A stretch of DNA of 64,000 bases from Clostridium sp. (GTDB lineage Bacteria > Bacillota > Clostridia > Oscillospirales > Acutalibacteraceae): the NCBI GenBank assembly GCA_031272895.1, contig JAISSW010000016.1, positions 159,098-223,097 of the forward strand, given 5' to 3'. Positions 9,805 through 31,337 of this stretch are shown piece by piece. The position numbers and the translations under genes are program-made. The notes under the pieces were generated by a model. The model saw only the letters and a list, made by a program, of their open reading frames with translations, was not told where the DNA came from and did not search any database. Positions within the stretch are counted from its first letter, which is position 1. Every line of letters begins with the position of its first letter.

Positions 9805-9821
9805 CGGCGTCAATAACTAAA

Positions 9822-10017: not shown

Positions 10018-10062
10018 GAGAGTAGCCTCCTTTGTAATGTTATCAGCTTTCGCTACAAGTTA

Positions 10063-10091: not shown

Positions 10092-10178
10092 GGGTTTTTT
10101 TGAAATTACAGCCAAAAATGAACAACAATTTTGTAACCACCCGTTTTTTGCCTGTTTCGCCGCCATAAGCTGATTAGC

Positions 10179-12326: not shown

Positions 12327-12346
12327 TTTTCTCCCCCGTACTCCCT

Positions 12347-14071: not shown

Positions 14072-14249
14072 TGGCGTTATTCCCCTCTTTAATAAAGTAT
14101 TGGGTAAGCAAAAGCAAACAAAGCCGTAGCAACACGGCGTTACAATAGGATAACATAATTTTGAAAATATTGCAAGGGCGGCGGCAAGGCACTTTACAAA
14201 ATGAGTGAAAACGTGTATACTAAAGCAAAACATAATCCGGGGGAAAACA

Positions 14250-14912: not shown

Positions 14913-14963
14913 AGGCCTTGCGCGGCTTAATTCCTGCCCCGGGGCAGCTTGGGAGGTAACGAG

Positions 14964-15389
14964 ATGAAATACACAAAATCAGGCGACACATATATTCTGC
15001 GGGCTGACGTTGGCGAGGAGGTCTGCACCTGTGTGCTGGAGCTTGCGCGCAGCGAGGGCATAAGCCTTGCGGAAATCAGCGGGTTGGGGGCTGCGTCCTC
15101 GGCAAGCGTTGGCATATATGACGTTGCGCAGCGCAAATACACACAGGTCGGTGCGGCTGAATACCCGCTTGAGGCGATTTCCCTGACGGGCAACATCACC
15201 CTCAAGGACGGCGCTCCCTACCTACATATGCACGCGCTGCTGGCAAACCCCGTGACCGGCACCGTGCTGGCAGGTCACCTCAACGAATTTATTGTCGGCG
15301 CCACGGCGGAGCTGTTTATTCGCTCCCTGCCGGGCAGCATCGACCGCATGGTTTGCCCTAAAACAGGACTTAACATAATGAAGCTGTAG
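14964..15389 (+). CDS. PPC (DUF296) domain protein
   Basis: Starts MKYTKSGDTYILRADVGEEVCTCVLELARSEGISLAEISGLGAASSASVG and later reads GNITLKDGAPYLHMHALL. This resembles the PPC/DUF296 fold signature. RBS GGGAGG. Confidence 0.55.
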   Translation: MKYTKSGDTYILRADVGEEVCTCVLELARSEGISLAEISGLGAASSASVGIYDVAQRKYTQVGAAEYPLEAISLTGNITLKDGAPYLHMHALLANPVTGTVLAGHLNEFIVGATAELFIRSLPGSIDRMVCPKTGLNIMKL

Positions 15390-15424
15390 CTCGTACCCGC
15401 TGTTGCAAACAGTTGAGCAAAAAA

Positions 15425-15457
15425 CGCTATGCTTTACGAGCATAGCGCTTTTGTTTT
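15425..15457. terminator. Bidirectional intrinsic terminator between convergent genes
   Basis: Stem CGCTATGCT/AGCATAGCG (9 bp) with loop TTACG, flanked by AAAA on the left and CTTTTGTTTTG on the right. Confidence 0.65.
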
Positions 15458-15483
15458 GTGACGGGCTGCTTGCGCAGGGTTCC

Positions 15484-16212
15484 TTAACCCCTATTGCGCA
15501 TGGAAGAGAGCAGGCTTTCGACGGCGCCGGGGTTTTGGGCAATGTATGAATCAGATATGGCTGTCAGGCAGTCATAAAGCGGCAAAAGCTTGATGTAATC
15601 ATCGCAAAGCCTTTTGGGGAAGGTCTGCTTTGCTAAGGCGGGAAAATCCGTCTTAGTGCGCAGGAAATATATCTCCTTTTTCAGCATAAAACGTAAAAGC
15701 TCCGGCGGCGCCTCGCCCGGCTTCGGCTTTTTGTATTCCTCCCCCGTAAGTAAAAACCCGGCTTTCTCCGCAGCGGCAATTGCGGGAATTGCACTGCCTG
15801 CGTTTTCAATCAGCCACGCCCGCCAATGCTCCGCAAACAGCGGCGGCTGGTACCAATAGCCCACGCCGGCGCCGTAGCCGCCCGGGTACACCTCGAACCA
15901 AAAGCAGGGGTGCAGCGGCCACTCCTTTTTGCCGCGCCCGACGGTAAGCCACACATGGTCGCGGTAAAGGGATTTATCCTTGGTGAAGCGTGTGTCCCTG
16001 CGTACACGGGACACCATTCGTGTTGGCATAACCTGCACAAGCGGGTCGTGCTCCAGCATAAGCTCACCCGCTGTTTGCGCAAGCTGCCGCATAGGCTCAA
16101 TCACCTGTGCGTTGATTTGCGCCTTATGCTCCTCGTAGTAATCGCGGCTGTCGCGCAGGCGGTTTTCCGCCAAAAGCAGCATTGCGTCCGCCGTTATACC
16201 CGAATAACCCAT
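15484..16212 (-). CDS. DUF2461 (TIGR02453) family protein
   Basis: 242 aa. The segments LLLAENRLRDSRDYYEEHKAQI and RVRRDTRFTKDKSLYRDHVW match the DUF2461 pattern as I remember it. RBS AGGAGG. Confidence 0.55.
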   Translation of the reverse strand: MGYSGITADAMLLLAENRLRDSRDYYEEHKAQINAQVIEPMRQLAQTAGELMLEHDPLVQVMPTRMVSRVRRDTRFTKDKSLYRDHVWLTVGRGKKEWPLHPCFWFEVYPGGYGAGVGYWYQPPLFAEHWRAWLIENAGSAIPAIAAAEKAGFLLTGEEYKKPKPGEAPPELLRFMLKKEIYFLRTKTDFPALAKQTFPKRLCDDYIKLLPLYDCLTAISDSYIAQNPGAVESLLSSMRNRG

Positions 16213-16224
16213 TGCCCGCTCCTC

Positions 16225-17472
16225 CTATCGCTTCACTTTCTGTACCTGCTCCGCCGCATTGAGTATTGCCGCCCTTGCGCTGTGGTAGTTAAGCCCGCCC
16301 TGGAACCAAACCGCATAAGGCTCACGCAGGGGCGCGTCCGCAGAAAGCTCTATGCTCGCGCCGCCTGTGAAGGTGCCCGCCGCCATAATAACCTTGCAGT
16401 CATAGCCGGGCATATCCCAAGGCTCCGGGGCAAGGTATGAGTCCACCGGCGACGCCGCCTGTATCCCGCGGCAAAAAGCAATCAGCCTCTCCTCGCAGCC
16501 CAAGCTTATGCTTTGCACAATGTCAAAGCGTTCCTCGTTGGGCGAGGGGGAAACACCATAGCCAAGTTCCTTAAACAGCGCGGAGGCAAACACTGCTGCC
16601 TTCAGCGCCTCACCCGTAACGTGCGGCGCATGAAACAGCCCCATGAACAGTTCCCTGTTGCCGCCAAGGCTTGCGCCCACCTCCCGCCCAAGGCCGGGGC
16701 AGCTCATTCGTGCCGCTGCAAGCTCAATCAAATCCTTGTTGCCGGCAAGGTAGCCGCCGCTTTTTGCCACGCCGCCGCCGGCGTTTTTAATCAGCGAACC
16801 GGCGACTATATCCGCGCCCACGGAGCAGGGCTCTTTCTCCTCCACAAACTCGCCGTAGCAGTTATCAACAAACAATACCGCGGCGCTGCACGAATGCACA
16901 AGCTCCGCCAGCCTGCCTATCTCCTCCACGCTGATTGCCCGCCGCAGGGTGTATCCCCGTGAGCGCTGGACATAAACCAGCCTTGGTTTTTTCTCCCTTA
17001 GCGCGGCGGTAATGGCGGGGTAATCAAAGCCCCCGTCCGCCAACAGCTCAAGCTGCTCGTATTCCACGCCAAAATCCTTTAGGCTGCCCTTGCCCTCCCT
17101 AAGACCAAGCACCGGCAGCAGGGTATCATAGGGCTGCCCGCTGACGCTGAGCATAAGGTCGCCGGGGCGCAAAATACCGAACAGCCCCGCCGCAATGGTA
17201 GCCGTGCCGCAGGCAAAGCTCTGCCGTATAAGCGCCTCCTGCGCCCCGAAGATTTTTGCGCACAGCCTGTCTAAGGTTTCCCTCCCCGCGTCGCCGTAGC
17301 CGTAGCCCGTGCTTTCGGCAAAGTGGCGGCTCTCCACGCGGCAATCCACAAAGGACTGCAAGACACGGCGCTGGTTTTGCTCGGTTACTCTCTCTATCCT
17401 CTCCAGCGCGGGAGCTGCCGCGGCTATCGCCCTTTGCTCCGCGGCGGTTATTTGCGAAGAAAAATTAAACAT
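16225..17472 (-). CDS. PLP-dependent methionine gamma-lyase-family protein (YnbB / aluminium-resistance protein type)
   Basis: I prefer the start MFNFSSQITAAEQRAI at 17472 (track GTG at 17514). The segment FAESTGYGYGDAGRETLDRLCAKIFGAQEALIRQSF resembles the YnbB family. Confidence 0.6.
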   Translation of the reverse strand: MFNFSSQITAAEQRAIAAAAPALERIERVTEQNQRRVLQSFVDCRVESRHFAESTGYGYGDAGRETLDRLCAKIFGAQEALIRQSFACGTATIAAGLFGILRPGDLMLSVSGQPYDTLLPVLGLREGKGSLKDFGVEYEQLELLADGGFDYPAITAALREKKPRLVYVQRSRGYTLRRAISVEEIGRLAELVHSCSAAVLFVDNCYGEFVEEKEPCSVGADIVAGSLIKNAGGGVAKSGGYLAGNKDLIELAAARMSCPGLGREVGASLGGNRELFMGLFHAPHVTGEALKAAVFASALFKELGYGVSPSPNEERFDIVQSISLGCEERLIAFCRGIQAASPVDSYLAPEPWDMPGYDCKVIMAAGTFTGGASIELSADAPLREPYAVWFQGGLNYHSARAAILNAAEQVQKVKR

Positions 17473-17553
17473 TGGAAGTCCTTTGTGTGTTTTTTTCGCT
17501 GCTAATTTTACCACTTTTTCGCCTTACTTTCAATAGAGGAACAAAATAGTCAC

Positions 17554-17582
17554 TTGTTATGGAACTAAGTTTGTGGTATACT
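17554..17582 (+). promoter_or_regulatory. Sigma-A type promoter for rsfS-guaA (TTGTTA-17 bp-TATACT with a TGTGG extension)
   Basis: TTGTTA at 17554-17559 and TATACT at 17577-17582 with a 17-bp spacer, 33 nt upstream of the rsfS ATG. Confidence 0.5.
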
Positions 17583-17614
17583 ATTAGCCATAAAATCAAA
17601 CCCAAGGAGGCTGC

Positions 17615-17947
17615 ATGGAACCCAAGGAGCTTGCGAAGGCTGTTATAAAGGCATTGGACGACAAAAAGGGAGTGGACATCCGCGCGCTGGCGGTTGGCGG
17701 ACTGACGATTGTTGCGGATTACTTCATCGTAGCCGGCGGAACCAGCGACACGCACATAAACGCCCTGAGCGAGGCTGTGCAGGACGAGCTTGCAAAGCTT
17801 GGTATTGAGCCGCGTCACACGGAGGGTCGCGCAAGCGGCTGGGTGGTGCTGGATTATGCGAGCGTACTGGTGCATATTTTCGGCGCGACGGAGAGGGAAT
17901 ACTACAACCTTGAGCGCCTCTTCCCGGACGCCGCCGTGCTTGTTTAA
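17615..17947 (+). CDS. rsfS: Ribosome silencing factor RsfS (iojap family)
   Basis: 110 aa. The segments LDDKKGVDIRALAV and ADYFIVAGGTSDTHINAL, followed by WVVLDYASVLVHIF, form the typical RsfS signature. Confidence 0.9.
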   Translation: MEPKELAKAVIKALDDKKGVDIRALAVGGLTIVADYFIVAGGTSDTHINALSEAVQDELAKLGIEPRHTEGRASGWVVLDYASVLVHIFGATEREYYNLERLFPDAAVLV

Positions 17948-17958
17948 GGAGGATTGAC

Positions 17959-19512
17959 ATGGAAAAGATTCTTGTCTTGGATTTTGGCGGTCAATACAAC
18001 CAACTGATTGCCCGCCGTGTGCGCGAACATAACGTCTTTGCGGAAATCCGTGCCGGGAGCAAAATAGGAACGGACGGCGGCGCAAGCCTTGACCAGCTGC
18101 GCGAATATAAGGGCATTATTTTTACCGGCGGGCCCAACTCCGTCTATGCCGACGGGGCGCCGCGCTGCCCTGCCGCAGTGCTGGATTTAGGCGTGCCTGT
18201 TTTGGGCATTTGCTACGGTGCCCAGCTGATTGCCTACCTTGCGGGCGGACAGGTCAAGCCCAACAACGGCGTTAGCGAGTATGGGCATACGCCGTTCACA
18301 CACAACGGCGCTTCCAAGCTCTTTGACGAGGTGCCGGCTCAAAGCGTGTGCTGGATGAGCCATGGCGACAGCATAACCGAGCTGCCTTACGGCTTTGCTG
18401 CCACCGCCGCCAGCGAGGGCTGCCCTGTCGCCGCAATGGAGAACCCCGAAAAGGGGCTTTACGCCGTGCAGTTCCACCCGGAGGTTAACCACACGGAATA
18501 CGGCGAAAAAATCTTCCATAACTTTTTATATAATATCTGCGGCTGCAAGGGTGATTGGGTCTTGGACGATTTTATCAGCCGCAAAATCAGCCAATACCGC
18601 GACGAATTGAACGGCAAAAAGGTACTGCTGGCTCTCTCCGGCGGGGTGGACAGCTCTGTCACCGCGGCGCTGCTGAGCAAGGCAATCGGCGAAAATTTGG
18701 TCTGCGTTTTTGTTGACCACGGGCTTATGCGCAAGGACGAGGGCGACTGGGTTGAGCAATATTTTACTTCCAACTTCGACATGCGCTTCGTGCGGGTCAA
18801 CGCGGCAAAGCGTTACCTAAAAAAGCTCAGGGGCGTCACCGAGCCTGAGAAAAAGCGCAAAATAATCGGCGCGGAGTTTGTGGAAATTTTCAAGGAAACC
18901 ATGGAGCAAATCGGCTATAAGCACGTTTTTGCTCAGGGAACAATCTACCCCGATGTGATTGAAAGCGGCGTAGGCGACGCTGCGGTTATAAAAAGTCACC
19001 ACAACGTGGGCGGGCTGCCCAAGGAGGTGCTGGAGAAATTTGACGGTCTGCTTGAGCCGCTGCGCGATTTGTTCAAGGACGAGGTGCGCACAATCGGCGA
19101 AAAGCTTGGGCTTCCGCATGAGCTTGTTTGGCGGCAACCGTTCCCCGGTCCGGGGCTTGGGATACGCTGCATAGGCGAGGTTACGGAGGAAAAGCTGAGC
19201 ATCGTGCGCGAGGCTGACGCAATCTTCCGTGATGAGGTTGAAAAGGCGGGGCTTGATTACACCCTGAGCCAATATTTTGCGGTTGTGACCGATGTAAAAA
19301 GCGTTGGCGTTATGGGCGACAGCCGCAGCTATGACCGGATGGTGGCGCTGCGCTCAATCGACACGGCGGACTTTATGACCGGCAACTGGAGCCGAATCCC
19401 GTATGAGCTGCTGGCAAAGGTGAGCAGCAGGGTTATCAATGAGGTAAAGGGCGTTAACCGTGTTGTTTATGACATAACCAGCAAGCCCCCGGGCACGGTG
19501 GAGTGGGAGTAG
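17959..19512 (+). CDS. guaA: GMP synthase (glutamine-hydrolysing)
   Basis: 517 aa. It has a GATase domain (ILVLDFGGQYNQLIARRVRE, GICYG), the PP-loop SGGVDSSV, and the C-terminal GTVEWE. Confidence 0.95.
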   Translation: MEKILVLDFGGQYNQLIARRVREHNVFAEIRAGSKIGTDGGASLDQLREYKGIIFTGGPNSVYADGAPRCPAAVLDLGVPVLGICYGAQLIAYLAGGQVKPNNGVSEYGHTPFTHNGASKLFDEVPAQSVCWMSHGDSITELPYGFAATAASEGCPVAAMENPEKGLYAVQFHPEVNHTEYGEKIFHNFLYNICGCKGDWVLDDFISRKISQYRDELNGKKVLLALSGGVDSSVTAALLSKAIGENLVCVFVDHGLMRKDEGDWVEQYFTSNFDMRFVRVNAAKRYLKKLRGVTEPEKKRKIIGAEFVEIFKETMEQIGYKHVFAQGTIYPDVIESGVGDAAVIKSHHNVGGLPKEVLEKFDGLLEPLRDLFKDEVRTIGEKLGLPHELVWRQPFPGPGLGIRCIGEVTEEKLSIVREADAIFRDEVEKAGLDYTLSQYFAVVTDVKSVGVMGDSRSYDRMVALRSIDTADFMTGNWSRIPYELLAKVSSRVINEVKGVNRVVYDITSKPPGTVEWE

Positions 19513-19518
19513 TTGAAT

Positions 19519-19570
19519 CACGCCGTCAAATGCCTGTGTTTATCAGCATTTGGCGGCGTGTGTGTTTTGG
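19519..19570 (+). terminator. Intrinsic terminator of guaA
   Basis: A 15-bp stem CACGCCGTCAAATGC/GCATTTGGCGGCGTG with one A/G mismatch and a 12-nt loop, followed by TGTGTTTTGG. Confidence 0.6.
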
Positions 19571-19769
19571 TGGTGGCTCTGCTTTGGCTCTACGCGAGGA
19601 CTTCGGGATTTTTTTGCGCCATGCTTCACGCTCCACTCTTAATCTGCCGTTGGTTCTTGAAAGACTACCGTTTCGATCCGTTTCATCGAATTTGCACTCA
19701 CCGCGACGATACATATCCGCCCAAAAAGCAATAGCCTATTTTTTGCATTTTGCCAAAGCGTGGGCGAAA

Positions 19770-20708
19770 TTACCTTTTTTTGCGCTTTTTCTTTTTGCCG
19801 TGTATCTGCTTTGGCGCTCCGTTCCACGCCCGCTTGAGCTTTTGTCCCACGCTCTCCGCCGCCGCCAATAGCCTTTGGTTCAGGCTCCTCTCGCCGCGCG
19901 CTTCAAACGCCTTGTTATACAGCACCCACAGCCAAGCCACGCAGTAGATAACCGTAAGCAGGCTGAACCACTGCCAAAGGGTCAGCCCAAGCGTGTGCCC
20001 TACGGGGTCAGTAGCTGAGTAATAGCGGAAAAAGTCGCTTATAAAACGGAGCGTGCTGAAAATCCCGGCACAAATAGGCCAAGCGCTTCCGATAATATAG
20101 CTCTTGCTCTTTTTTATAAACCATAGGGTAAATATGCAGGCAAAAAGTGCCGCAAATGATTCAAATTCCGGAATGGGAAGATAATATACTGATGTTGCCC
20201 CTTCAGTCAAGACTGCCGGCGTAACCCCCCATGATGCCAGTTCGCCAAAGCAGCAGCCACCGAAGCAGCAGCCCAGCTTGCCAAAGCAAACCATAATTGC
20301 GATTGGCGCGGCAGATAGGTCGTAAAACTCCTTTTGCGGCAGGCGCGCAAGCTTCAGCAGCGGCCACATGAGCGCCGGCAAAAACAGGAAAGCTCCCGGA
20401 ATCAGCAGGAAGCTGCCTATTATTTCATTTCTGCCTCCCCAGCCATCAAATATCCATGCTGTGAACAGGGCGCTAAAAAAACCGGCGGGGACGATAGTAA
20501 TAGTTATAAGCGGAGCCTGCCGAATACGGATATTCATCCACTTCAGCGTACAAATCACCAATATAGTTGCGACAATCAGACCCACTCCGCTGCTGCCCCA
20601 ATAGAGCATATCGCGCACAGCGGCGGTAGTTATCTCATTATCATCAGTGCTGAGTTTTTCCGCCAACCATTGCGGAAAATTATTAAATAAAAGGTCAAAC
20701 AGATTCAT
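19770..20708 (-). CDS. Divergent Lgt-family (prolipoprotein diacylglyceryl transferase-like) polytopic membrane protein with a poly-Lys/Arg tail
   Basis: 312 aa with about 7 TM segments. FGKLGCCFGGCCFGE sits where Lgt has GRxGNFxNxExxG. LRFISDFFR resembles the Lgt RFxxEFxR motif. A WGG motif is present. The C-terminus is HGKKKKRKKR. G+C is visibly lower than in the flanks. Confidence 0.45.
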   Translation of the reverse strand: MNLFDLLFNNFPQWLAEKLSTDDNEITTAAVRDMLYWGSSGVGLIVATILVICTLKWMNIRIRQAPLITITIVPAGFFSALFTAWIFDGWGGRNEIIGSFLLIPGAFLFLPALMWPLLKLARLPQKEFYDLSAAPIAIMVCFGKLGCCFGGCCFGELASWGVTPAVLTEGATSVYYLPIPEFESFAALFACIFTLWFIKKSKSYIIGSAWPICAGIFSTLRFISDFFRYYSATDPVGHTLGLTLWQWFSLLTVIYCVAWLWVLYNKAFEARGERSLNQRLLAAAESVGQKLKRAWNGAPKQIHGKKKKRKKR

Positions 20709-20736
20709 ACAAACCTCAGTGCTTCACTATGCCAAA

Positions 20737-20763
20737 GCAGACCGCCCGCGAGGGGCGGCCTGC
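20737..20763 (-). terminator. GC-rich hairpin between the giant gene and the Lgt-like gene (weak terminator or attenuator)
   Basis: The minus-strand RNA reads GCAGGCCGCCC-CUCGC-GGGCGGUCUGC. It forms 11 bp including one G-U pair and is followed only by UUUGG. Partial read-through into the Lgt-like gene therefore seems plausible. Confidence 0.4.
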
Positions 20764-20792
20764 TTGCTTGTTAACTGCGCAACGCTTTTGAC

Positions 20793-23700
20793 TTAGGCAA
20801 ACAACCCGAAGATTTTCTTCACCCAAGCAATCAGCGTCAAGAAGAGCTGAATGAAACCAAATTGCGCAATGCCCTCACTCGGCGTTACAACCGCCTTGAA
20901 GTACTTATTGGCAAAGGCTTCTGCGTTCTTCGCGTAGGCTTGGTCGTAGCTGTTGGAGCTGAGCAAGCGCTGATATGCGTTCTTGATAGCCGTATTCAGC
21001 GACTGCCACTTGTTATACGCGGGTGTTATAACCTTTGTATCAAGCCCGAAGCACAGCACGAACAGCGCGTTCAGGGCGACATCAACGCCATAGGTGGTCT
21101 TGCCGGTGATGTCTGACTTGTGGTATGTGGTGATGAACACCAGGATATCCTCAAGTGTTTGCTTGATTGCGGAATACATGGGCTCCTTCAGGCCGTTGTC
21201 GGCGAGGGTCGCCATGATTGTATCCACATTGACCTGAGTACCCGCAACGGACACGAGAACCAACCTGAGCAGCGCGGTGAGCATATACGCCTCGTTTACG
21301 CTGTCTGTCTTGATATAGAGCGCCGGGGCGGCTCCGCTGGCGGAGGTGTAGACTGTTTCGTCTCCGGCGACGACAGCCCTGAGTGCGTCATAGGTCAAGC
21401 CAAGACCCAGACCCTGCAGCACGTCGTCAAGCAATGCGGGAATATCGAGGGCAACATCAATCGGGTCGGTAACGAAGTAGAGCTTGTTGACCTCGGAGAG
21501 GACGTAGTTGACAGGCTCAAGCAGCTTGTCGATGCAGGTATTGAGGTTTGTTTCAGCGAAGTAGAGCAGGTTCGGGAGAACCTTGAAGATATTGACTGTC
21601 GGGTTCGCAAGGATTTGCTCAACCGCGTAGAGAATCGGCTGCAGGATGGCGCGGATTTGTCCCTCGCCGTCCAATGTTGCGAATGTCGCCGGGTCAACAA
21701 CCTCTGTGAGCTTATCTTCGCCAAGTCCGACTACGAACGCCTCAAGGATAGGCACTAAGGCAACCTTGTATCCGTCCGCGCCGAAGATGTTGATGATGTA
21801 GGTGGAGCTATCCGCCTTAACAGCGTGGAGCTTGCTGCTGCTGAGCAACAGGTCAACCACCGGGATTGCGGGCTCAAGCAGCTGCACCAAGCCGTTCACA
21901 AAGCTTGTTTCATCGTTAACGACGATTGAGCCGGAGGTGTAATTCTCGAACGGAGCGAGGATTACGTCAAGGTCGAGCGACTGGATTGTACCCTGTGTTG
22001 CGTTGCTTACCGCCACAAGGTCCTTAAGCAGCTCTGCCAAGCTCTTGCCGCCAACGTTGATGTTGCGGATTGTGGGGATATAGTCCTTAACAAGGTCAAC
22101 AATCATGTCGAAGTTGGACTGCGTGTAGAGCGCGTTGCCAAGCAGGTCTGTGAGGATTGACTCCTCCTCTTCAATCACGTCGTCGATTGTAGCCTGTACG
22201 CTGCCGAACGGCTTACCGAAGAGAATCTTGAACACCTTGTTCAGGAAGTCGTCCGCATGGGCGTAGGTGTAGTCAATGTGCTCCTGCGTCCACCACTCGT
22301 CACGGATTTGGCTGTCAAGCGTGAAGCCCTCTGCGTCGCCGTAGGTTATTGGTGTGTTGAACGTGAACACGCCGTCAGGTCCGTACATGAGGTGGTAGAG
22401 TGCGTCAAGTACAACGTCCGGGTCACCCTGAATGTTGCCGAGTACCTCCGCGACGATGTCAACAATCTGTTGGTCGCCAAGGAACTGGTAGACAAGGTCA
22501 AGTCCCTCTGTTGTGTTAAGTGCGTCAACAAGGTTGAGCAGCACCGAGAAGAAGTATTCAACCTGGCTGGTGCTTAGCTTCGGATAGTATCCTGTCCTTA
22601 CCGCCGACTTGCACTGAACCTTTGCGGTTGTGCTGACGGAGGCTGTGTCGGTTATTGTTCCGACGACAAGCGCCTTGACCAAGTCCGCGTCAACGACGGT
22701 GGTAAGGTCAACGCCTTTAACAACCAACAGACCCTCGTCCTTAAGCATACCGAGTATGCCGTCCAAGCTGAGCATATCAACATAGGAATTGATGAGGTCG
22801 GAGGTGTTGTAGAGCGGACGCACCGTGTCGAGCAGCACCAACAGTGTTTCCAGCGTGTTCTTCAGCGCGTCGCTGAGCGCCGTGTCTGAGGCGAGGAAGA
22901 ACACCATTTGCGGCAGACGGTCAAGCAGCTCGCCAATTGGGTCTGCGGCAATAACCGCCAAGGAGTCGAACACCGGCGCCAGGATTGCGTTGACGAAAGC
23001 CTCGTTGCCGGCCGCCGTGCCGTCATAGAGCGCCTTAACCGCCGTTGCGGATTGCAGGTTAGTGGTGAGCGTCAAGCCCTCCAGCAGCGGGATAAGGCCG
23101 TTCTCGTAGCCATTGTAGCCGGGGATAATGATTGTGTCGTCAAGCACACCCAAATCCTTGTTGAAGAGCATTGTGTAAAGCAGCGGGGCAATTGGCGAAA
23201 CCAGTTTGCCGAGTGCCGCCTGGAATTCCGCCTTGTCGTCAATCTGGTCGTCGCCGTTGCCGATTCCGGTCCAGAACGTGCCGCCGCTGGTGTAGGTCCA
23301 GGTGTTGTACTGGTCAAGGTCAATTTCGGGCAGCAGCTCCGCAACAAGCGGCAGGTAGTCCGCGATTGGGCTTGCCGGTCCAACATACTTCAGCAACAAG
23401 TCTTTAACTTTGTTGAAGATATCCGTTGTGTAAACCTTGCCGTCCAGCAGGTCGTTGACTAAGGCGTTCACGTCCATCAACTCGCCGCCGGTTAGGGCAG
23501 TCAAAATCATGTCGAGTATTGCCTGACCCTCAGCCTGGCTGAGCGGGTGCGTCGCGTTAAAGGTATACGGCGCCTGAACAATACCCGGCGTGTAGCCGAT
23601 TGTGTAGGCGGCGTAATCCGCGCTGGGAATCATAAGCTCCGTTACCGCGGCAATTGCCTCTTCGCTGTCGGGGATTGAAAGGTTCAGCCCAATATCTCTC

Positions 23701-26700
23701 ATGTAGCTGTCATTCAGAACCCTTGTCAGCAAGGTATACAAAACGTCAGCTTTGTCTGCCGTGATGTAGTGACGTGGCTGGGAATTATTAAGCGTATCTG
23801 TACGTTTAGTCGGCAGAATTGTCGCACCGGCAATGTCTGTCGCAGAGGAGCGAATTGTACCGTAGGTTTCAATGTCCGTCAAATCCGGAACATACGCTGC
23901 CGCGCCGCCAAACAGTGCAAGAACTGAATTGAAATTGCCCAAATCCAAACCAAGCCCATCAAGTACACCATTGATTACACTTGAAAGATCGATTCCGGGA
24001 ATAATAAGCGGGTCAGGCATAATTTTATTGTGCGACTCTTCATAAGCTTGCTGCGAAGCCGCCAGACCAGATCCTTGAATCCAAATGTGGATACCATGTT
24101 TCATCGAACCATCCGGGATGTCCGGAGTGCTTTGTAACACAGAGCAGGCAGAAAACGAACCCATTCGTATCCAACCATCAATGTCCACATTCAGTTCAAG
24201 TATAATGCCGTCTAACAGTGAGGAAATACGGTCACGGTCAAATGCGTACAGTAGGTTCGGCAAGAGCTCAAGGAGCTTGCTGACCGGTGCCGCCCCCAAC
24301 TGTTGAATGTAAGCGTCAATCGGGTTCAGTATTGCGTTAACTATATTTTTGCTTGCAGTAAGCACGCTGGACTGATTATAAGTATAGTTTGACTTGCCGG
24401 TTACGTACTTGTAGAATTGGCCCTTGACTCCCGGCGGGTTGCTTTGTCCGGCTGAACCCGCAACCTGTCCATAACTAACACCACCCAAGAAGTTGCCCGA
24501 CGAACCATCGCCATCTGTTGCAGTTGCATAAACCTTGGTAACATGCCCAATTGGCTTGCCGTAATTTGTTTGTGACTGCAGGGTTGACTGCGTTGGAATC
24601 GAATCATAAATCGTTCCTGCACCGGTCGCGGTACCCGCAAGCACTTCAAAGATTGGCGCAAGCAATTCGTTGTAAAGACTCATCGCCGGGATTTGCAGTT
24701 CAATGTAAATTCCGCCTGCCGCAGTTGTTGACCCATTGACAGTGTCGCCCATTGGGCTATACATCGCGTTAAGGTTAAACGGAATAGTGAAATCGCCTTG
24801 TTTTACCGAACCCGTCAAGCTACCGATATTATCGTGGAAAGCGTAGTATTCGGTTCCTGCCATCATTGTTTTCAGCAAAGGCAACAGACCGCTCAACGCC
24901 GCCGCGAGTGCTTTTTTAAACTGCGCCACGCGAGTGCTACCTGCAAGACTATCAATACCCCAGTCAAATACGAGTTCCCCTGCCTTTTGGAAATATGCAT
25001 TATTGGGGTTTGACGGATTTGCGTAATCATATTCCGTCACTCCGGCGGGAGGCGGATTCAACGGGTCGGTAGTGTAAACCTGACGCCCCAAGCTATCAAT
25101 CGTTGGAGTCCAAATTGAAGAATCGTGCCAAATGCCACCGTTTGCCTTGTTGATTGTACCCGGCACATAACCTGAAACGCCGCCTTGAGCGTTTGACTTA
25201 ACAAACAACGACCCATGCAAGTCTGTGTAAGGCGCCTGCGCGGTATAGGTTCCGCCTCCGGCAAGCGTAAAGTTATCAGGTCCAAGTTTTTTCAGTGCGT
25301 TATAGATAGCCGGGAATTCCGAAGAACCCATCGCATCTGCAACAAGGTCCGGATAGAGCCGCAAATCCTGAATGGTATTGGTGTTCAGCGCTGCTTTAGC
25401 CTTATTCGCCAAAATATCGTGCAGGTTAAAGATTTCTAAGGTAAGACCATCATTGCCTTCCAACAGAGATGGGCTAGCAATACCACTAAAGGCGTCCTCA
25501 AACTTCGCCAAAACCAATGGATACAGGAACAACATGAGTGTGTTGACCATCTTGTTGCTGTAAAGCTGATTTTCCAAAATCCCTTGCAAAATGGTGCTGA
25601 CGTTGGTCGTGTCCACACCGTAAAGCATGCTTTCAGGATTACTTGTGTCAACCTTGAGTAAATCAAAGATTGCCTTCACGTCGCCATTGGAGCCAAGCAA
25701 GTCATCCAACTTTGCAACAACATCATTGATTTTATCCTCAGTCACAAGATATTCGTGGTTGTCAACCAGGTCATCCGCTTTTGGTGTTCGGTCAACGTAG
25801 TTGCCGCTTCCGGCCGGGCTGTCTGCGTTATTTGTTATCCAATATTTCTCCGGGTTGTTCTCATAGTCCTGCACTAAGGGCTTAACCTTATTTAACAGGA
25901 ATAGATAGTCATTGATAACATTGCGTGCAACATCTGTGTACGGCGCACCAAACAGCGTTGGCGCCGTTAGCGGGGTAATCGCGTTTATATACTCTTCACG
26001 ATAAGTAGTGTTGAGAAGTCCATTATACAAGCTCGCCTTTATTGCATTGATTGCCATAAGCAAAGGCGCCGCATTTGTTGGGCTAACCCTTATGGTGCCA
26101 TCCGTGAACTGAATAAGGTTGCTTGCCTCAAGGTCAAAGTAAACGCTCATGGCATTTGAAACCTGCTCTGCAAAGCGTGAAGCAAGCTCGCCGCCATTAC
26201 TGCCGAGTACATTCGGCATAATGTAGTAATCCTCATAGGAAATCCACGCTGAGTTAACCGAATCGTAAATATACCAAATTTCTTGGTTAAGCTCCGCCGT
26301 CATCTTGGAGTCTGCATAGGCGGCTGCCTTTGCAGTCTTATATTCGGTGTACTTAGCGTCCGCCGCGGCAAAATTGCTGATTAGCGTTGCATCATTCGCG
26401 AGCTTTGCCTGGGCGGCAGTTATCCCCATTGAGAGGAAGTCATTACGCAAGCTATACCACGTTGCCTCATGCACCTTGCGGTATTGTACCTCTGCGTTAA
26501 GACGATTGTAAATGCTAGACATCTTAAGGTAGAATGGGAACAGTGTGCCAACGTCCGAACCCAACCCATTAAGAACCGCCTGGTATGTGTTTGCTTGAAG
26601 CGAAAGCACACCGATTTGATTTGTGGAAACATACTTGTCCTGGTCCGCCACAGGGGTTCCGGCAGGATACGGTAAATCCCAATTCGCCCCCCACCAGCTG

Positions 26701-28304
26701 TTTTCGTCCGTTTCAGTTTCGGGGTAATAGTGGAAGTTGAATTCACTGTTAACACTATAATCGCTTTGTTGAGCCGGGGGCAAGGCAGATATTTCGGCAG
26801 CAGTGATTTCGGCATAGTCATTAACCATTGCACGAATATCCGGCTCCAAAATGGCGAACGAACACAGCGACAAAACCTTAACCATGTTGGTGTTATAGTT
26901 AACCCAAGCAGTAGTATCGGCAGTCGCCAAGCTATTGTCCGTAAGGTATGTGTCAAGGTCCGTCCTATCCTGGGCGGAATAGGTCGCAGAATTATAGCCA
27001 TTGGTGTAATTGGCTGTGAAGTTGTTAATCGCGGCGGTAAAGCCGGTTGTAACAACATCTCCGTTAACGTCCGTCGTGGCTGTAAAACCGTCAATCAACC
27101 CGGCGTTTACGTCCTGAGCCAACGGCCATTGGTCGCTAAGGTTTGGTGTGAAATTAAACGCCGCCGTGTTGGACGGAGTCGTTGCGGTCAGCACACCCGT
27201 AGCGCCTTGGAAGTACTTATAGTAATTATAGAGATTTTCAATGCGAGCAGCTTTCGTTATGGCGTTGTTTAGGTTGGTGATTGCCGCATCAACATTGGTG
27301 TAGTTTGCGGAACCGAAGAAATGCCCAAGCAGAGTGTCGCGCTCACTTGCAGCAACACCTGTTGCGCCCGTGATTGCAGTCTTTGCAGCGTTCAATTCCG
27401 TGCGGATATCCCACAAGGTGGTTTCGCCGTTAATTACATAATCGCCAACCAAGGCTTCAATTTCGTCGCTTGTGTCAACCTGGTCATAGTTTGCGGTGTT
27501 GGTTTTCCAAGTTGTCAGTGCGTCCTTAATCCCCTTGATATTTGTCGTGGTTACCGAGGCCGTGGGCCGCTCCGACATTGTTATGCCGCTTGCACGGCCG
27601 CCCCTAACCCTGTAATTTAAAAGTCCAACGTATCTCCACCAATACCATTGTTGTTGCAGAGCTGATGTTGGGCCAACAGACATACTTGCGGCAGTGTCTA
27701 TTGTGTCCGTCAAGGTGGTCCAATCCGAAACGGTCGTTATGATGTCCACCGCGGTATATGGACCCGCAGAGTAGCTGCCGCCGTTTTGGCTACTAACCGT
27801 CGGATAGTTCGGATAGCTCGGGCTCGCGCCGGTTTTAGCGTAATACCTCGTACTGCTTTCAGAATAGGCGGCAAGCGGAGTAGTTCCCGTATCGGCGGTA
27901 GAATCATTAGCTCCCGTCGCCGCTTGGAGGATTGCCTGCACCTGGGCAGCCGTTGCCCCCGCAACAGTCGTGCCCTTCAGGGCTTGGTAAATCAGCTTTG
28001 GCGTATAGTTTGTTCCGGCAGTTTTTGTCGCCGAAGCACCGTCGCTCGTTTCAGCACCTTGCGCCGGGTAAACCGAATACGCCAGCTTTGTCCAAGTCAT
28101 GCTGTCCATTGCCCTTGCCAAGGCTGCGGCAATTTTTAAGTTCAGTTGTGCTGCGGCGTCAGGTGTGGCCGCAACAGCGTCATCCTTCAGCACCGCCGGC
28201 AGGGCCAGCAGCGGCACAACGCACACAACCGCGCTGAGTACCATGAGTATGCTCAGCAGCAGACCTAAGGTGCGCCGTGGCAACTTGCGTAGGGTTCTTT
28301 TCAT
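20793..28304 (-). CDS. Giant (2503 aa) predicted envelope protein of unknown function, with an N-terminal signal/anchor and a C-terminal hydrophobic tail
   Basis: A single uninterrupted 7.5-kb ORF with RBS AAGAGG. The N-terminus is MKRTLRKLPRRTLGLLLSILMVLSAVVCVVPLLALPAVL, a basic n-region followed by a long hydrophobic stretch. The last 21 aa are FGFIQLFLTLIAWVKKIFGLFA. The composition is rich in T/N/D/A/L/Y. I recognise no known domain, no LPXTG signal and no cell-wall-binding repeat. Confidence 0.8.
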   Translation of the reverse strand: MKRTLRKLPRRTLGLLLSILMVLSAVVCVVPLLALPAVLKDDAVAATPDAAAQLNLKIAAALARAMDSMTWTKLAYSVYPAQGAETSDGASATKTAGTNYTPKLIYQALKGTTVAGATAAQVQAILQAATGANDSTADTGTTPLAAYSESSTRYYAKTGASPSYPNYPTVSSQNGGSYSAGPYTAVDIITTVSDWTTLTDTIDTAASMSVGPTSALQQQWYWWRYVGLLNYRVRGGRASGITMSERPTASVTTTNIKGIKDALTTWKTNTANYDQVDTSDEIEALVGDYVINGETTLWDIRTELNAAKTAITGATGVAASERDTLLGHFFGSANYTNVDAAITNLNNAITKAARIENLYNYYKYFQGATGVLTATTPSNTAAFNFTPNLSDQWPLAQDVNAGLIDGFTATTDVNGDVVTTGFTAAINNFTANYTNGYNSATYSAQDRTDLDTYLTDNSLATADTTAWVNYNTNMVKVLSLCSFAILEPDIRAMVNDYAEITAAEISALPPAQQSDYSVNSEFNFHYYPETETDENSWWGANWDLPYPAGTPVADQDKYVSTNQIGVLSLQANTYQAVLNGLGSDVGTLFPFYLKMSSIYNRLNAEVQYRKVHEATWYSLRNDFLSMGITAAQAKLANDATLISNFAAADAKYTEYKTAKAAAYADSKMTAELNQEIWYIYDSVNSAWISYEDYYIMPNVLGSNGGELASRFAEQVSNAMSVYFDLEASNLIQFTDGTIRVSPTNAAPLLMAINAIKASLYNGLLNTTYREEYINAITPLTAPTLFGAPYTDVARNVINDYLFLLNKVKPLVQDYENNPEKYWITNNADSPAGSGNYVDRTPKADDLVDNHEYLVTEDKINDVVAKLDDLLGSNGDVKAIFDLLKVDTSNPESMLYGVDTTNVSTILQGILENQLYSNKMVNTLMLFLYPLVLAKFEDAFSGIASPSLLEGNDGLTLEIFNLHDILANKAKAALNTNTIQDLRLYPDLVADAMGSSEFPAIYNALKKLGPDNFTLAGGGTYTAQAPYTDLHGSLFVKSNAQGGVSGYVPGTINKANGGIWHDSSIWTPTIDSLGRQVYTTDPLNPPPAGVTEYDYANPSNPNNAYFQKAGELVFDWGIDSLAGSTRVAQFKKALAAALSGLLPLLKTMMAGTEYYAFHDNIGSLTGSVKQGDFTIPFNLNAMYSPMGDTVNGSTTAAGGIYIELQIPAMSLYNELLAPIFEVLAGTATGAGTIYDSIPTQSTLQSQTNYGKPIGHVTKVYATATDGDGSSGNFLGGVSYGQVAGSAGQSNPPGVKGQFYKYVTGKSNYTYNQSSVLTASKNIVNAILNPIDAYIQQLGAAPVSKLLELLPNLLYAFDRDRISSLLDGIILELNVDIDGWIRMGSFSACSVLQSTPDIPDGSMKHGIHIWIQGSGLAASQQAYEESHNKIMPDPLIIPGIDLSSVINGVLDGLGLDLGNFNSVLALFGGAAAYVPDLTDIETYGTIRSSATDIAGATILPTKRTDTLNNSQPRHYITADKADVLYTLLTRVLNDSYMRDIGLNLSIPDSEEAIAAVTELMIPSADYAAYTIGYTPGIVQAPYTFNATHPLSQAEGQAILDMILTALTGGELMDVNALVNDLLDGKVYTTDIFNKVKDLLLKYVGPASPIADYLPLVAELLPEIDLDQYNTWTYTSGGTFWTGIGNGDDQIDDKAEFQAALGKLVSPIAPLLYTMLFNKDLGVLDDTIIIPGYNGYENGLIPLLEGLTLTTNLQSATAVKALYDGTAAGNEAFVNAILAPVFDSLAVIAADPIGELLDRLPQMVFFLASDTALSDALKNTLETLLVLLDTVRPLYNTSDLINSYVDMLSLDGILGMLKDEGLLVVKGVDLTTVVDADLVKALVVGTITDTASVSTTAKVQCKSAVRTGYYPKLSTSQVEYFFSVLLNLVDALNTTEGLDLVYQFLGDQQIVDIVAEVLGNIQGDPDVVLDALYHLMYGPDGVFTFNTPITYGDAEGFTLDSQIRDEWWTQEHIDYTYAHADDFLNKVFKILFGKPFGSVQATIDDVIEEEESILTDLLGNALYTQSNFDMIVDLVKDYIPTIRNINVGGKSLAELLKDLVAVSNATQGTIQSLDLDVILAPFENYTSGSIVVNDETSFVNGLVQLLEPAIPVVDLLLSSSKLHAVKADSSTYIINIFGADGYKVALVPILEAFVVGLGEDKLTEVVDPATFATLDGEGQIRAILQPILYAVEQILANPTVNIFKVLPNLLYFAETNLNTCIDKLLEPVNYVLSEVNKLYFVTDPIDVALDIPALLDDVLQGLGLGLTYDALRAVVAGDETVYTSASGAAPALYIKTDSVNEAYMLTALLRLVLVSVAGTQVNVDTIMATLADNGLKEPMYSAIKQTLEDILVFITTYHKSDITGKTTYGVDVALNALFVLCFGLDTKVITPAYNKWQSLNTAIKNAYQRLLSSNSYDQAYAKNAEAFANKYFKAVVTPSEGIAQFGFIQLFLTLIAWVKKIFGLFA

Positions 28305-28495
28305 TGTTGTTACCTCTTTTCTTAGATTATATTGCCTGAGTTTGGAATGTGAATTGGTGCCGTGTTACGGCGGTTTGCCTGCAATCATGTGTTATCAAAC
28401 CCCATTTCTTTATATTTGCCATTGGTTTAGCCGATTTTGGGATAGCGGTTTCCCCGCAATACCGAGTAAAGGGGCATAGCTCCCCCCTATGGGGT

Positions 28496-28524: not shown

Positions 28525-28535
28525 AGCCTTTTATA

Positions 28536-28562
28536 GAAAAAAAAGCGACGTTTTTGCCGCCG
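28536..28562 (-). terminator. Candidate intrinsic terminator ending dpaAB transcription
   Basis: The minus-strand RNA reads GCGGCG-GCAAAAA-CGUCGC followed by U8. The stem is short (6 bp, including one G-U pair). Confidence 0.4.
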
Positions 28563-28579
28563 CTTGTGCAATTTGCACA
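28563..28579. promoter_or_regulatory. Perfect 17-bp palindrome TTGTGCAA-T-TTGCACAA (candidate operator)
   Basis: Read directly from the sequence. Related half-sites lie at 28588-28595 (TTGCACAA), 28604-28611 (TCGTGTAA), 28631-28638 (TTACACAA) and 28679-28686 (TTGTGTAA). Confidence 0.4.
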
Positions 28580-28617
28580 AATGTCATTTTGCACAAAAAG
28601 TTTTTCGTGTAACGTCC

Positions 28618-28632
28618 GTTTTTTTTTTTTTT
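28618..28632. repeat. Homopolymeric T15 (A15 on the coding strand of the giant gene)
   Basis: Counted directly: 15 consecutive T residues. They lie between the inverted half-sites TCGTGTAA and TTACACAA. Confidence 0.95.
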
Positions 28633-28773
28633 TACACAAAAGATATTCGCTCGAAATTTTATTTTTCCGCTAAAGAAATTTGTGTAACCCGATTTTTACC
28701 ACTTGTAAACGGTTTTTATTCAATTTGCCCTAAAAACTTTGTCACATGGCGTTCATTTTTCCTCAATCTGCCC

Positions 28774-29369: not shown

Positions 29370-30254
29370 TCAGCCCGCAGAGCGCCTAAGCTCCCGCAGG
29401 ATTGAGTGAACCGTATCCGCAATAATAAGCCCCGCTGTTTTTGGCGCCGCCTTGCCCGGCAGACCCTGCGCAAGTATATAGTGCATACCAAGCCGCCTTG
29501 CCGCCTGCGAGTCAATACCAAAGGGTGCGCCCGCTATCTCTATCAGCAGGCAGGCTTTACCTAACGCGGCAAGCTGCTTTTCCCCCAAACACTGTGCCGG
29601 TATTGTGTTCACCAGCGCGTCAAAGCGGCGTGGGCTGTCGGCAAGCTCCTCCAGCGCTATCGGCTCACAGCCCTCCGCAAGCGCCTGCGCCAGGTCACGC
29701 CTTTTCCTTGCGGCTACTGCCACCCTTGCGCCTATCCCCCGCAGCACTCGGGCAAGCGCCCTTGCGCAGCGCCCATAGCCTGTGACGCAGATTGTGCAGC
29801 CTGCCACCGCCGTTTCCAGCTCCCTAAACAGGATCGCGAGCACACCCTGCGCCGTCGGCACGGCATTTGCAATAGCCGCCTCCTGGCAGGCAAGGTAATC
29901 GAACACGGCAATCCCCTTGGCAAAAAACAGCTGCCTAAGCTCCCGCGGCGGCAGACCCGCCAGCACCGTCTGACCGGGCGTAACAAGTGACACAATTTCC
30001 TTAGCCGACAGTTCTTCGTCAAAAAAATCCGCGCGCAGTATATCACGCCCCTTGGAGTTTTTAGTAAAAAGCGGCAGCACCGCGGCATCACAATGCCCAA
30101 GCGCCCCGCGCCAAGCACAGCCCTTTACAAAGCGCAGTGCTTCAAAGTCCTCCTGCGGCTCAAAGCCGCCCACAAGCGTATCATAGCCCTTTTTCTTAAG
30201 GCTCTGCGCCGCAAAAAGCATACGGCGGTCGCCGCCAAGCAGCAGCAGTTCCAT
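29370..30254 (-). CDS. dpaA: Dipicolinate synthase subunit A (SpoVFA)
   Basis: Rossmann motif VTGYGRCARALARVLRGIGARV with an N-terminal MELLLLGGDRR. I prefer the ATG at 30254 (RBS AGGGGG) over the track GTG at 30260. Confidence 0.85.
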   Translation of the reverse strand: MELLLLGGDRRMLFAAQSLKKKGYDTLVGGFEPQEDFEALRFVKGCAWRGALGHCDAAVLPLFTKNSKGRDILRADFFDEELSAKEIVSLVTPGQTVLAGLPPRELRQLFFAKGIAVFDYLACQEAAIANAVPTAQGVLAILFRELETAVAGCTICVTGYGRCARALARVLRGIGARVAVAARKRRDLAQALAEGCEPIALEELADSPRRFDALVNTIPAQCLGEKQLAALGKACLLIEIAGAPFGIDSQAARRLGMHYILAQGLPGKAAPKTAGLIIADTVHSILRELRRSAG

Positions 30255-30365
30255 TCCCACACCCCCTGCCGACAGCTTATGCTCTCACCCTCGGGCGGGT
30301 GCCGCAGTTCTATGCCCCTGCCTGTCCGCATAGACTTAACAGGACAAACTCAAGGGGGCGAAGGC

Positions 30366-31337
30366 ATGGAGAGCAGAAACTCGGAGCGTTTCCGTCAGGC
30401 AGCGGGCTTTTTGTGTCCGCGCCTTACTCAGTTGCTTTGTTCCTTAGATGAGGGGCTTCGCGGCTCGGTAAGGGAAATTCGCCTGAGGAGCGAGCGTCCC
30501 CTGCAGCTCCTTACGGGGGAGGGGCTGTTTTTTGTTGTTGACGGCAGTCTTTCCAAGACCGGGGCGGGCGCTGCCTGTGTAAGCTCCGCAGAGCTGCGCG
30601 AGTGCTTCAGCCGCCTTTGCGAATACTCTGTCCACGCGCACGGGGCAAGCATTGCCCGTGGCTTTGTTGCTGTTCGCGGCGGTCACAGGGCTGGGCTTTG
30701 CGGCACGGCAGTGCTCGCCGACGGACAAATCACTTCCCTGCGGGATATTTCCTCAATCAACCTGCGCGTTGCGGGGGAATACCCCGGTGCGGCAAACGGC
30801 CTTTTCGGACGTTTTTTTGCCCACGGCTTATGCTCCCTGCTGCTGGCGGGACCGCCCGGCTGCGGGAAAACCACCCTGCTTAGGGATTTGGCGCGGCAGC
30901 TGAGCCTTTCCGGCAGACGGGTCAGCCTGCTGGACGAGAGGGGGGAAATTGCGGCTGCGCACCGCGGCGTTCCCCAAAACGATGTCGGCTTCTCGGACGT
31001 CCTCACGGGCTATCCAAAGGGCGAGGGGCTTCAAATTGCCATTCGCTGCCTTAATCCTCAGCTTATCCTGTGCGACGAAATAGGCTCCATTGCGGAGCTG
31101 CGCGCCATGGAGGAGGGGCTGAACGCGGGTGTCAGCTTAGTCGCAAGCGCCCACGCCGGCGACGAAAAGCAGCTGTTGACCCGACCCCAGCTACGCCGTC
31201 TTTTAGGGGCGGGGATATTTGATTATATCGTGCTGCTTGGAGAACAGCCCGGCTCCGCATACCGAGTGCTTGGTGTACACCAAACGGCGCAACCCTTATT
31301 GAGGGACAACGCAGCGGAAGCAAAAACATTTTTTTGA
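30366..31337 (+). CDS. spoIIIAA: Stage III sporulation protein AA (ATPase)
   Basis: Internal ATG at 30366 (MESRNSERF..., RBS AAGGGGG). Walker A motif LLAGPPGCGKTTLLRDL. First gene of an eight-gene spoIIIA-ordered operon. The upstream part of track ORF 30093.. overlaps dpaA in antisense. Confidence 0.85.
   Translation: MESRNSERFRQAAGFLCPRLTQLLCSLDEGLRGSVREIRLRSERPLQLLTGEGLFFVVDGSLSKTGAGAACVSSAELRECFSRLCEYSVHAHGASIARGFVAVRGGHRAGLCGTAVLADGQITSLRDISSINLRVAGEYPGAANGLFGRFFAHGLCSLLLAGPPGCGKTTLLRDLARQLSLSGRRVSLLDERGEIAAAHRGVPQNDVGFSDVLTGYPKGEGLQIAIRCLNPQLILCDEIGSIAELRAMEEGLNAGVSLVASAHAGDEKQLLTRPQLRRLLGAGIFDYIVLLGEQPGSAYRVLGVHQTAQPLLRDNAAEAKTFF

Follow-up and report, generated by a model that had tools for sequence, protein, structure and literature searches.

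A large unnamed family of giant, putatively exported proteins in Oscillospiraceae and related Clostridia

One gene in a 64,000-nucleotide stretch of a Clostridium sp. genome (GenBank assembly GCA_031272895.1, contig JAISSW010000016.1), a stretch called the window here, encodes a protein of 2503 amino acids (aa). An earlier note on this DNA, made from the letters alone, had described the product as an orphan, anchored at both ends and with no recognizable domain, and had considered a role at the spore or forespore envelope among other options. The locus raises a simple question: what kind of protein is this, and where would it work? Our comparisons place it in a large unnamed family of giant proteins, predicted to be exported, in Oscillospiraceae and related Clostridia. 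The gene itself is as follows.

20793..28304, minus strand (28304→20793): giant gene, a complete open reading frame (ORF) with an ATG start, 2503 aa plus stop codon

The gene and its family

The single unbroken ORF reported at 20793-28304 is confirmed, and it lies on the minus strand, which the earlier note had left unstated. The probability of a 2503-codon open frame arising by chance is (61/64)^2503 ≈ 1e-52, by an arithmetic that assumes equal codon use. The product is identical to LBQ80_05805, a protein of the metagenome-assembled genome (MAG) that is annotated as 'hypothetical protein [Clostridium sp.]', and an independently assembled Logan contig carries the same giant gene, again identical.

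The claim that the protein is an orphan was refuted by an exhaustive search. A HMMER scan with residues 1304-2503 as the query against 1.84 billion cluster representatives recovered 294 family representatives at E≤1e-3, 241 at E≤1e-10 and 122 at E≤1e-30. Family members are 2,000-7,700 aa long, the query is matched in up to 16 separate stretches, and many of the matches reach to within a few residues of the C-terminus. Wherever a source name is given, the member is listed as a 'hypothetical protein' of an Oscillospiraceae bacterium, a Clostridia bacterium or a Clostridium sp. MAG. The MAG that holds our gene also encodes a paralogue of 4322 aa (P0003, LBQ80_03850), and other MAGs likewise have two or three family copies. 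A locus search with one family alignment returned five loci, all from termite-gut-type Oscillospiraceae MAGs.

The outcome depended on the search method. A word-index homology search returned the query alone when given the whole protein, and only P0004 when given a 14-sequence profile of the repeated module described below. It missed the whole family, including relatives that are 44% identical, probably because long, biased queries fill the candidate lists with unrelated giant proteins.

Searches of Pfam, NCBIfam and PDB sequences found no domain in the whole protein or in tiles of it, in agreement with the first impression; the tiled searches with hidden Markov models (HMMs) that had been recommended were among those run, and they came back empty. 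Pfam gave no match for any relative tested, two of which are as long as 6,554 and 7,691 residues, and per-member Pfam scans of the family were also empty. Profile searches against PDB sequences produced chance-level matches only (BGA71, E = 0.013; Merlin, E = 0.17), and tblastn against phage genomes produced none. Our literature search found no paper describing the family. Giant proteins of Oscillospiraceae have been reported, of the RCC1-repeat type (10.1101/2023.11.21.568195); we considered these and set them aside as belonging to another class.

Since the sequence was taken from a MAG, one may ask whether the frame is an assembly chimera or a pseudo-ORF that is not expressed. Against this stand the second assembly with its identical gene, the hundreds of homologues that share the same full-length architecture down to the last residues, and the ribosome-binding site and promoter match that precede the gene (see below). 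We regard the probability of such an artefact as negligible.

Oscillospiraceae are abundant gut bacteria, most of which are uncultured. With this family they gain unannotated proteins that reach 7,700 residues and of which a genome often has several. Added up over a community, the 'dark' coding sequence comes to hundreds of kilobases, and its products probably act at the cell surface, where attachment to fibre, to the host and to other microbes takes place and where phages make contact.

Head, modules and tail

The domain order consists of a signal peptide, a variable region of about 270 aa, one head, a tandem array of modules of about 440 aa each, and a C-terminal helix. In the 2503-aa protein, these parts are laid out as follows.

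28170..28304, minus strand: aa 1-45, family-typical signal peptide with a basic n-region, LGLLLSILMVLSAVVCVVPLLALPAV, then AVA|A as the predicted cleavage site
27363..28169, minus strand: aa 46-314, variable T/A/S/G/Y-rich region, with no similarity detected even to the closest relatives
25662..27362, minus strand: aa 315-881, head domain (iterated family HMM, 317 bits)
23577..25631, minus strand: aa ~892-1576, module copy 1, diverged and with insertions (HMM matches 892-994 and 1087-1576)
22170..23501, minus strand: aa 1602-2045, module copy 2 (family HMM, 341 bits)
20850..22169, minus strand: aa 2046-2485, module copy 3 (family HMM match 2043-2485, 324 bits)
20796..20861, minus strand: aa 2482-2503, C-terminal hydrophobic/amphipathic helix FGFIQLFLTLIAWVKKIFGLFA, which aligns with the relatives' tails

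The head was defined by an HMM that was seeded with the N-terminal 900 residues and iterated, and that converged on about 500 positions. Of the 170 family sequences examined, 119 contain it. Among the 99 representatives that have both head and modules, the head occurs once in 97 and twice in two, and it lies N-terminal to the first module in 98. Head and module are unrelated to each other (hhalign probability 0.2). An aromatic/His motif before the head, 'HYHH', is inconsistent (13/99).

Modules were mapped with an HMM iterated on 170 family sequences. They are marked by the motifs GYxYGlIPlLEAl and aIL.Pi...LPnl.YF, and three copies were found in our protein. Copies 2 and 3 are plainly related, as aa 1616-2037 are homologous to aa 2051-2481 with a Smith-Waterman score of 212 (z = 17 against shuffles); self-BLAST missed this internal repeat, which Smith-Waterman alignment with shuffles detected. 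Near residue 1348 the core motif, 'aIL.Pi...(~20)...LPnLLYF', occurs a third time in weaker form, and within module copy 1 it reads aIL.Pi...LPnLLYa at about aa 1322-1354. Elsewhere in the family, the number of modules rises to 14, and protein length in the 99 representatives follows 1021 + 432 × modules (r = 0.91). Paralogues within genomes differ in module number; loci L003, L006 and L007 are three contigs of a single MAG, Gsp477_bin26.

The extreme C-terminus had been described as a hydrophobic/amphipathic 21-mer. Such a segment is indeed present, and its length is 22 residues, not 21. Two main tail variants occur in the family, PNGFIxFFxxIxxFFKKIFxFF and W..LLGT...FMP.I.W...L.G, conserved to the last residues, and the median hydrophobic moment of family tails is 1.91, compared with 1.73 for the 99th percentile of all 18-mers of our protein. 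The tail of the 2503-aa protein is more hydrophobic than the family (mean hydropathy 1.42-1.72) and could, from its sequence, be an in-plane helix or a short transmembrane segment. Internal 19-residue windows with a hydropathy above 1.5 are few and all lie inside the helical modules, with a maximum of 1.91 at aa 1769-1787.

The protein as a whole is acidic and Cys-poor (6 Cys), a composition typical of extracellular proteins. Its two parts differ in composition as originally described, the N-terminal part being rich in T/N/Y/A and the C-terminal part in L/D/V.

AlphaFold2 models were generated for two of about five regions, namely the head and module 3 together with the tail. The model of module 3 and tail, from a 14-sequence alignment, has a mean predicted local distance difference test score (pLDDT) of 71 and a predicted template modelling score (pTM) of 0.63; it contains about 20 helices and three small β-hairpins, and the terminal helix stands apart and is modelled with low confidence. 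The head model, from a 22-sequence alignment, has a pLDDT of 63 and a pTM of 0.57; essentially the whole of it is helical, the helices are long, and the confidently modelled core lies at about aa 554-824. The first ~1100 aa had been expected to be beta-rich; this does not hold for the portion that the model covers, aa 315-881, which is almost wholly helical. The Foldseek comparison that had been proposed was run on the head and module models and assigned no known fold: neither matched any of 350,542 PDB chains (best E-values 0.87 and 1.8, query-normalized template modelling scores ≤0.16), and the module model had no match in BFVD. At the moderate confidence of the models, head and module look like undescribed folds or families.

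Export, attachment and presentation of the head

The N-terminus begins with MKRTLRKLPRR and continues with about 26-28 hydrophobic residues, in line with the basic n-region and hydrophobic stretch already recorded. The segment 'RRTLGLLLSILMVLSAV..P' aligns with the N-termini of relatives, and of the 138 family members with an initial Met, 91 have the motif [KR]..LS..LS.LM..S...P, in most cases with an AxA-like site after it. The N-terminal segment of our protein resembles a cleavable Gram-positive signal peptide in which AVA|A spans about residues 43-46, and AxA-type sites occur at the equivalent position in relatives. The idea of a protein anchored at both ends, which the earlier note had inferred, finds no confirmation in an N-terminal segment of this kind.

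The sequences show the family and its modular build, together with an export signal and an amphipathic tail; from these we infer export and attachment to the membrane. Our tentative preference is for a Sec-exported surface protein that is tethered by its C-terminal helix and in which a stalk of variable length presents the head. The protein would be exported via Sec, after which the signal peptide would be removed, and the C-terminal helix would embed in the outer face of the cytoplasmic membrane, as in PBP5. The module array would then form the stalk, with the number of modules setting its length, and would reach through or past the thick wall. At its end, the head and the hypervariable N-terminal tip would be held at the cell surface for binding, be it adhesion or recognition. 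The presence of several paralogues per genome and the hypervariability of the tip count in favour of this surface stalk. The broader proposition, that this is an exported and probably surface- or membrane-associated protein of an unnamed family without a described domain, is supported by the sequence comparisons.

Some observations weigh against the stalk. With a pTM of 0.63, a single module may be a compact domain just as readily as a rod, if not more so. Both the removal of the signal peptide and the way the tail behaves at the membrane are predicted from sequence, and the tail's 19-residue hydropathy of 1.72 could be enough for a short transmembrane segment. We recognized no ligand-binding or adhesin-type domain. 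About 10 other family loci had no Lgt-like gene of the kind that adjoins ours (see below) in the flanks retrieved; contig ends truncate some of them.

The giant family resembles Ebh and Embp (of S. aureus and S. epidermidis, respectively) in design logic alone. In these giant Gram-positive proteins, an export signal at the N-terminus is followed by a rod of α-helical repeats, whose number sets the length, and then by a C-terminal membrane-associated region (PMC7587433). In sequence and fold the two are unrelated. Pfam found no FIVAR, GA or DUF1542 domain and no YSIRK motif in our protein, its tiles or its relatives; repeats measure ~440 aa in the giant family and ~125-170 aa in Ebh/Embp; the giant family has a single conserved head domain, unlike Ebh/Embp; and its tail is an amphipathic or short hydrophobic helix, whereas Ebh/Embp have a predicted transmembrane region. 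Foldseek with the head or module model retrieved neither Ebh/Embp nor any other structure. What appears to be new here is a giant modular Gram-positive surface protein made of two undescribed domain families.

At one locus (L011), a FIVAR-containing Ebh-type giant of >3,268 aa (1-8695), an Lgt-like gene (8883-9785) and a 4,705-aa family member (10001-24118) lie head to tail. At another (L013), a family member directly follows an ORF without a Pfam match that is at least 3,344 aa long.

For the tether, the precedent is E. coli PBP5 (DacA), which is exported through Sec and kept attached to the membrane's outer face by a C-terminal amphipathic helix (PMC2909392). The likeness lies in the combination of a signal peptide with a terminal amphipathic helix of about 18-22 residues, the giant tail having a predicted membrane role; the rest of the giant protein is unrelated to PBP5 and has no peptidase S11 domain. 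Other modes of surface attachment left no trace. A regular-expression search of the 2503-aa protein found no LPxTG, NPxTG or variant of these, no LPXTG-like motif of the sortase type stands at the C-terminus, and Pfam found no SLH, CWB2 or choline-binding repeats in the whole protein or tiles. The absence of LPXTG, SLH, choline-binding and CWB repeats that had been noted by eye was borne out by these searches.

The same membrane-tethered, wall-embedded topology could also serve an envelope scaffold, which would link membrane and wall or organize the synthesis or modification of wall polymers. Several family loci are found among envelope-polymer genes (GT2, IspD, MBOAT, DHHW and GDSL; YfhO and CotH; VanY; GT2 with B12-radical SAM and Lgt-like genes), the GYxYGLIPLLEAL motif in every module could be a repeated wall-polymer binding site, and an unstructured region of S. 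aureus Ebh has been implicated in osmoresistance (PMC7587433). However, no single neighbouring gene is conserved across the family loci, and a hypervariable tip with multiple paralogues fits outward recognition better than housekeeping. We consider a scaffold possible, if doubtful.

The tail prompts a further explanation, in which the protein is a released effector or toxin and its cationic, amphipathic C-terminal helix attacks the membranes of competitors or host. Many members have tails, for example FFQKIAEFFKKIGDFFKNLF, that are strongly amphipathic, Lys-rich and antimicrobial-peptide-like, and in its size and its signal peptide our protein is reminiscent of large secreted toxins; TcdA/TcdB and Tc/RHS toxins share with it a length of about 2,400-2,700 aa and a clostridial origin. 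The tail of our protein, however, is hydrophobic and not cationic, a variable number of modules is atypical of toxins, and no conserved immunity-like small gene lies downstream at the loci examined. Pfam recognized no toxin, peptidase or glycosyltransferase domain. In the whole protein and its tiles, Pfam and NCBIfam detected no glucosyltransferase, C80 peptidase or pore domains and no RHS/YD repeats, consistent with the lack of RHS/YD, toxin and peptidase motifs remarked on at first reading. In addition to lacking the Pfam domains of TcdA/TcdB and Tc/RHS toxins, the giant protein differs from them in its Sec signal peptide, variable tandem modules and conserved tail. A toxin therefore strikes us as quite improbable, and the surface stalk remains our preferred, tentative reading.

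The Lgt-like gene and other neighbours

Directly downstream of the giant gene, and separated from it by a hairpin, lies a gene for a divergent member of the Lgt family.

19770..20708, minus strand: 312-aa divergent Lgt-family membrane protein (PF01790, E = 7e-11)
20735..20765, minus strand: 13-bp GC-rich hairpin followed by UUUGG, between the giant-gene stop and the Lgt-like start

The Lgt-like protein scores 42.7 bits, far from the NCBIfam equivalog cut-off of 334 for canonical Lgt, and it has FGKLGCCFGGCCFG where the canonical signature stands. That signature is GRxGNFxNxExxG and includes N146 and E151; in an alignment to an E. coli Lgt sequence, Cys replaces both residues in the Lgt-like proteins. 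The Lgt-like genes found beside giant-family genes share the signature FGK[FL]GCxxxGCCxG and keep the Arg/acidic motif RFxxEFxR. Their products have a poly-Lys/Arg C-terminus. The hairpin is possibly a weak or leaky terminator or an mRNA-stabilizing stem; the 96 nucleotides around it fold with -36.8 kcal/mol (z = -1.85).

An Lgt-like gene adjoins a family gene in five independent loci, which represent at least two distant subclades and include tandem pairs in two cases. These loci, followed by Lgt-like coordinates at L002 and L011, are listed below.

The window, 19770-20708, minus strand: Lgt-like gene beside the giant gene described here
P0002: two Lgt-like genes in tandem, upstream
L004, 1-240: Lgt-like fragment at the contig end, immediately upstream of the family gene
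P0049: distant subclade, with an Lgt-like gene beside the family gene
L079, 2-883 and 883-1836: tandem pair of Lgt-like genes; the ORF downstream of them begins with the family signal peptide
L002, 4937-5860 and 5956-6873, and L011, 8883-9785: Lgt-like genes immediately beside family genes

Lgt-family genes are normally present in about one copy per genome, and chance is therefore a very unlikely explanation for this adjacency (a rough estimate gives p below 1e-5). The Lgt-like protein is probably a functional partner of the giant, in its anchoring, modification or assembly.

A metagenome scan with a degenerate DNA motif of the Lgt-like gene yielded at least 120 loci (L014-L133). Nearly all of the 120 loci listed, from marine, sediment, freshwater and soil samples, encode an Lgt homologue with the GC...GCC motif that scores 45-100 bits by HMM. 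This variant of the signature is widespread, and the motif is therefore not specific to the giant-protein system. Among the matches listed, none of the generic environmental Lgt homologues with GC...GCC has a giant-family gene nearby, and the two best-scoring Lgt-like ORFs (both in L079) lie directly upstream of a family gene.

A recurrent Lgt-like neighbour might point to a lipid-linked system, in which the enzyme would lipid-modify the giant at a non-canonical site or the modules would carry its lipid or glycolipid. The RFxxEFxR motif of Lgt is kept, the genes stand directly beside family genes at the five loci, and some family signal peptides contain a Cys in a lipobox-like context. In our protein, the candidate residue is Cys28, which had been singled out as the only early Cys. 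It is, the next Cys being at residue 481 or later, but a special significance for it is not confirmed. The corresponding position is Ile or Val in the nearest relatives (P0002/P0151, P0003, P0005 and P0009), and LSAVVC, with Val at -1 and hydrophobic residues that continue past Cys28, departs from the lipobox rule of [LVI][ASTVI][GAS]C at the end of the h-region (PROSITE PS51257-type). A lipobox-like LMAFSC or LMAVSC is found in 33 of the 91 family signal peptides, in more distant members (e.g. P0019, P0020, P0023 and P0024), where it is located in the middle of the hydrophobic region, upstream of the AxA site.

The likeness to bacterial lipoproteins (Lgt/Lsp) consists of the signal-peptide Cys, the adjacent Lgt-family gene and the LMAFSC of some distant members. 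Beyond the failings of Cys28, it is countered by a neighbour that is a divergent paralogue far below the Lgt equivalog cut-off, with Cys in place of N146 and E151. The signal peptide of the closest relative, a protein with two Lgt-like genes beside its own, contains no Cys; the alignments of module and tail show no invariant Cys; and the available flanks of about 10 family loci hold no Lgt-like gene. The predominantly helical models of head and module show no recognizable lipid-transfer fold and differ from the long β-groove ('taco') of AsmA/TamB/YhdP and VPS13-like bridge lipid-transfer proteins; Pfam found no AsmA or DUF490 domain in the giant protein. We consider a lipid-linked system unlikely. 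For the suggestion of a lipid- or glycan-handling scaffold, support is indirect and comes from the recurrent Lgt-like neighbour.

A bolder combination of these elements is that giants and divergent Lgt-like enzyme form a new envelope system of gut Clostridia, with a length-adjustable fibre built of two unseen folds and a lipobox-independent Lgt-family reaction for its attachment or maturation; we see this as a long shot. The partnership with the Lgt-like protein is nevertheless the element that could lift the family beyond the known giant modular surface proteins. Two new domain families can now be curated, the proposed anchoring mechanism can be put to the test, and the Lgt fold may have found a new use.

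On its other side, the giant gene is preceded by expression signals and by genes of sporulation.

28313..28318, minus strand: ribosome-binding site AAGAGG, 8 nucleotides upstream of the ATG, which bears out the good site reported earlier
28326..28353, minus strand: σ70-type promoter-like site TTCACA-16-TATAAT, 11/12 matches, ~22 nucleotides upstream of the ATG (a pattern match alone)

The gene is flanked by dpaA/dpaB and the spoIIIA operon, and the earlier note had taken this as a hint at a spore or forespore role. On that account, the giant would be a protein of the spore or forespore envelope, or an inter-membrane protein, anchored at both ends. One family locus is near gpr and spoIIP and another near two CotH genes, and the long N-terminal hydrophobic segment could be an uncleaved signal anchor. 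But dpaAB or spoIIIA were found at none of the other family loci examined, so that this copy alone has such surroundings and no conserved synteny with sporulation genes emerged. A same-strand terminator-like hairpin at 28565-28543 separates dpaB from the promoter of the giant gene, whose best promoter match is of the σ70 type. The GC content of the giant and Lgt-like genes is 0.47-0.55, compared with about 0.60 in their neighbours, and GC at third codon positions is 0.60 and 0.575 in the giant gene and the next gene, compared with 0.63-0.72 in the flanking genes. The lower values fit an insertion between housekeeping and sporulation genes. Because the synteny is not repeated and base composition fits an insertion, the link to sporulation genes is most likely coincidental, and we hold a role at the spore envelope to be very improbable.

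Horizontal transfer was considered as the source of the lower GC content; the GC at third codon positions is slightly lower and is not decisive.

An Rfam search upstream of the giant gene found no riboswitch. A weak match to Rfam SQ2397 in the intergenic region between dpaB and the giant gene (28526-28679, minus strand; 24.8 bits against a gathering score of 100, E = 0.04) is most likely due to chance.

Gene content differs from locus to locus. In L002, genes for an amino oxidase, a GT2 enzyme and a B12-binding radical SAM protein (207-4878) stand ahead of the Lgt-like genes; L010 has YfhO, two CotH and a radical SAM protein (1-9352); and L012 has IspD, GT2, GDSL, MBOAT and DHHW (7741-9806 and 21366-27069).

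In the window, the longest spoIIIAA ORF (30093-31337, plus strand, 414 aa) overlaps the start region of dpaA (29370-30260, minus strand). The gene caller of the sister contig gives a 323-aa spoIIIAA product, and the true start of spoIIIAA is probably further downstream than 30093.

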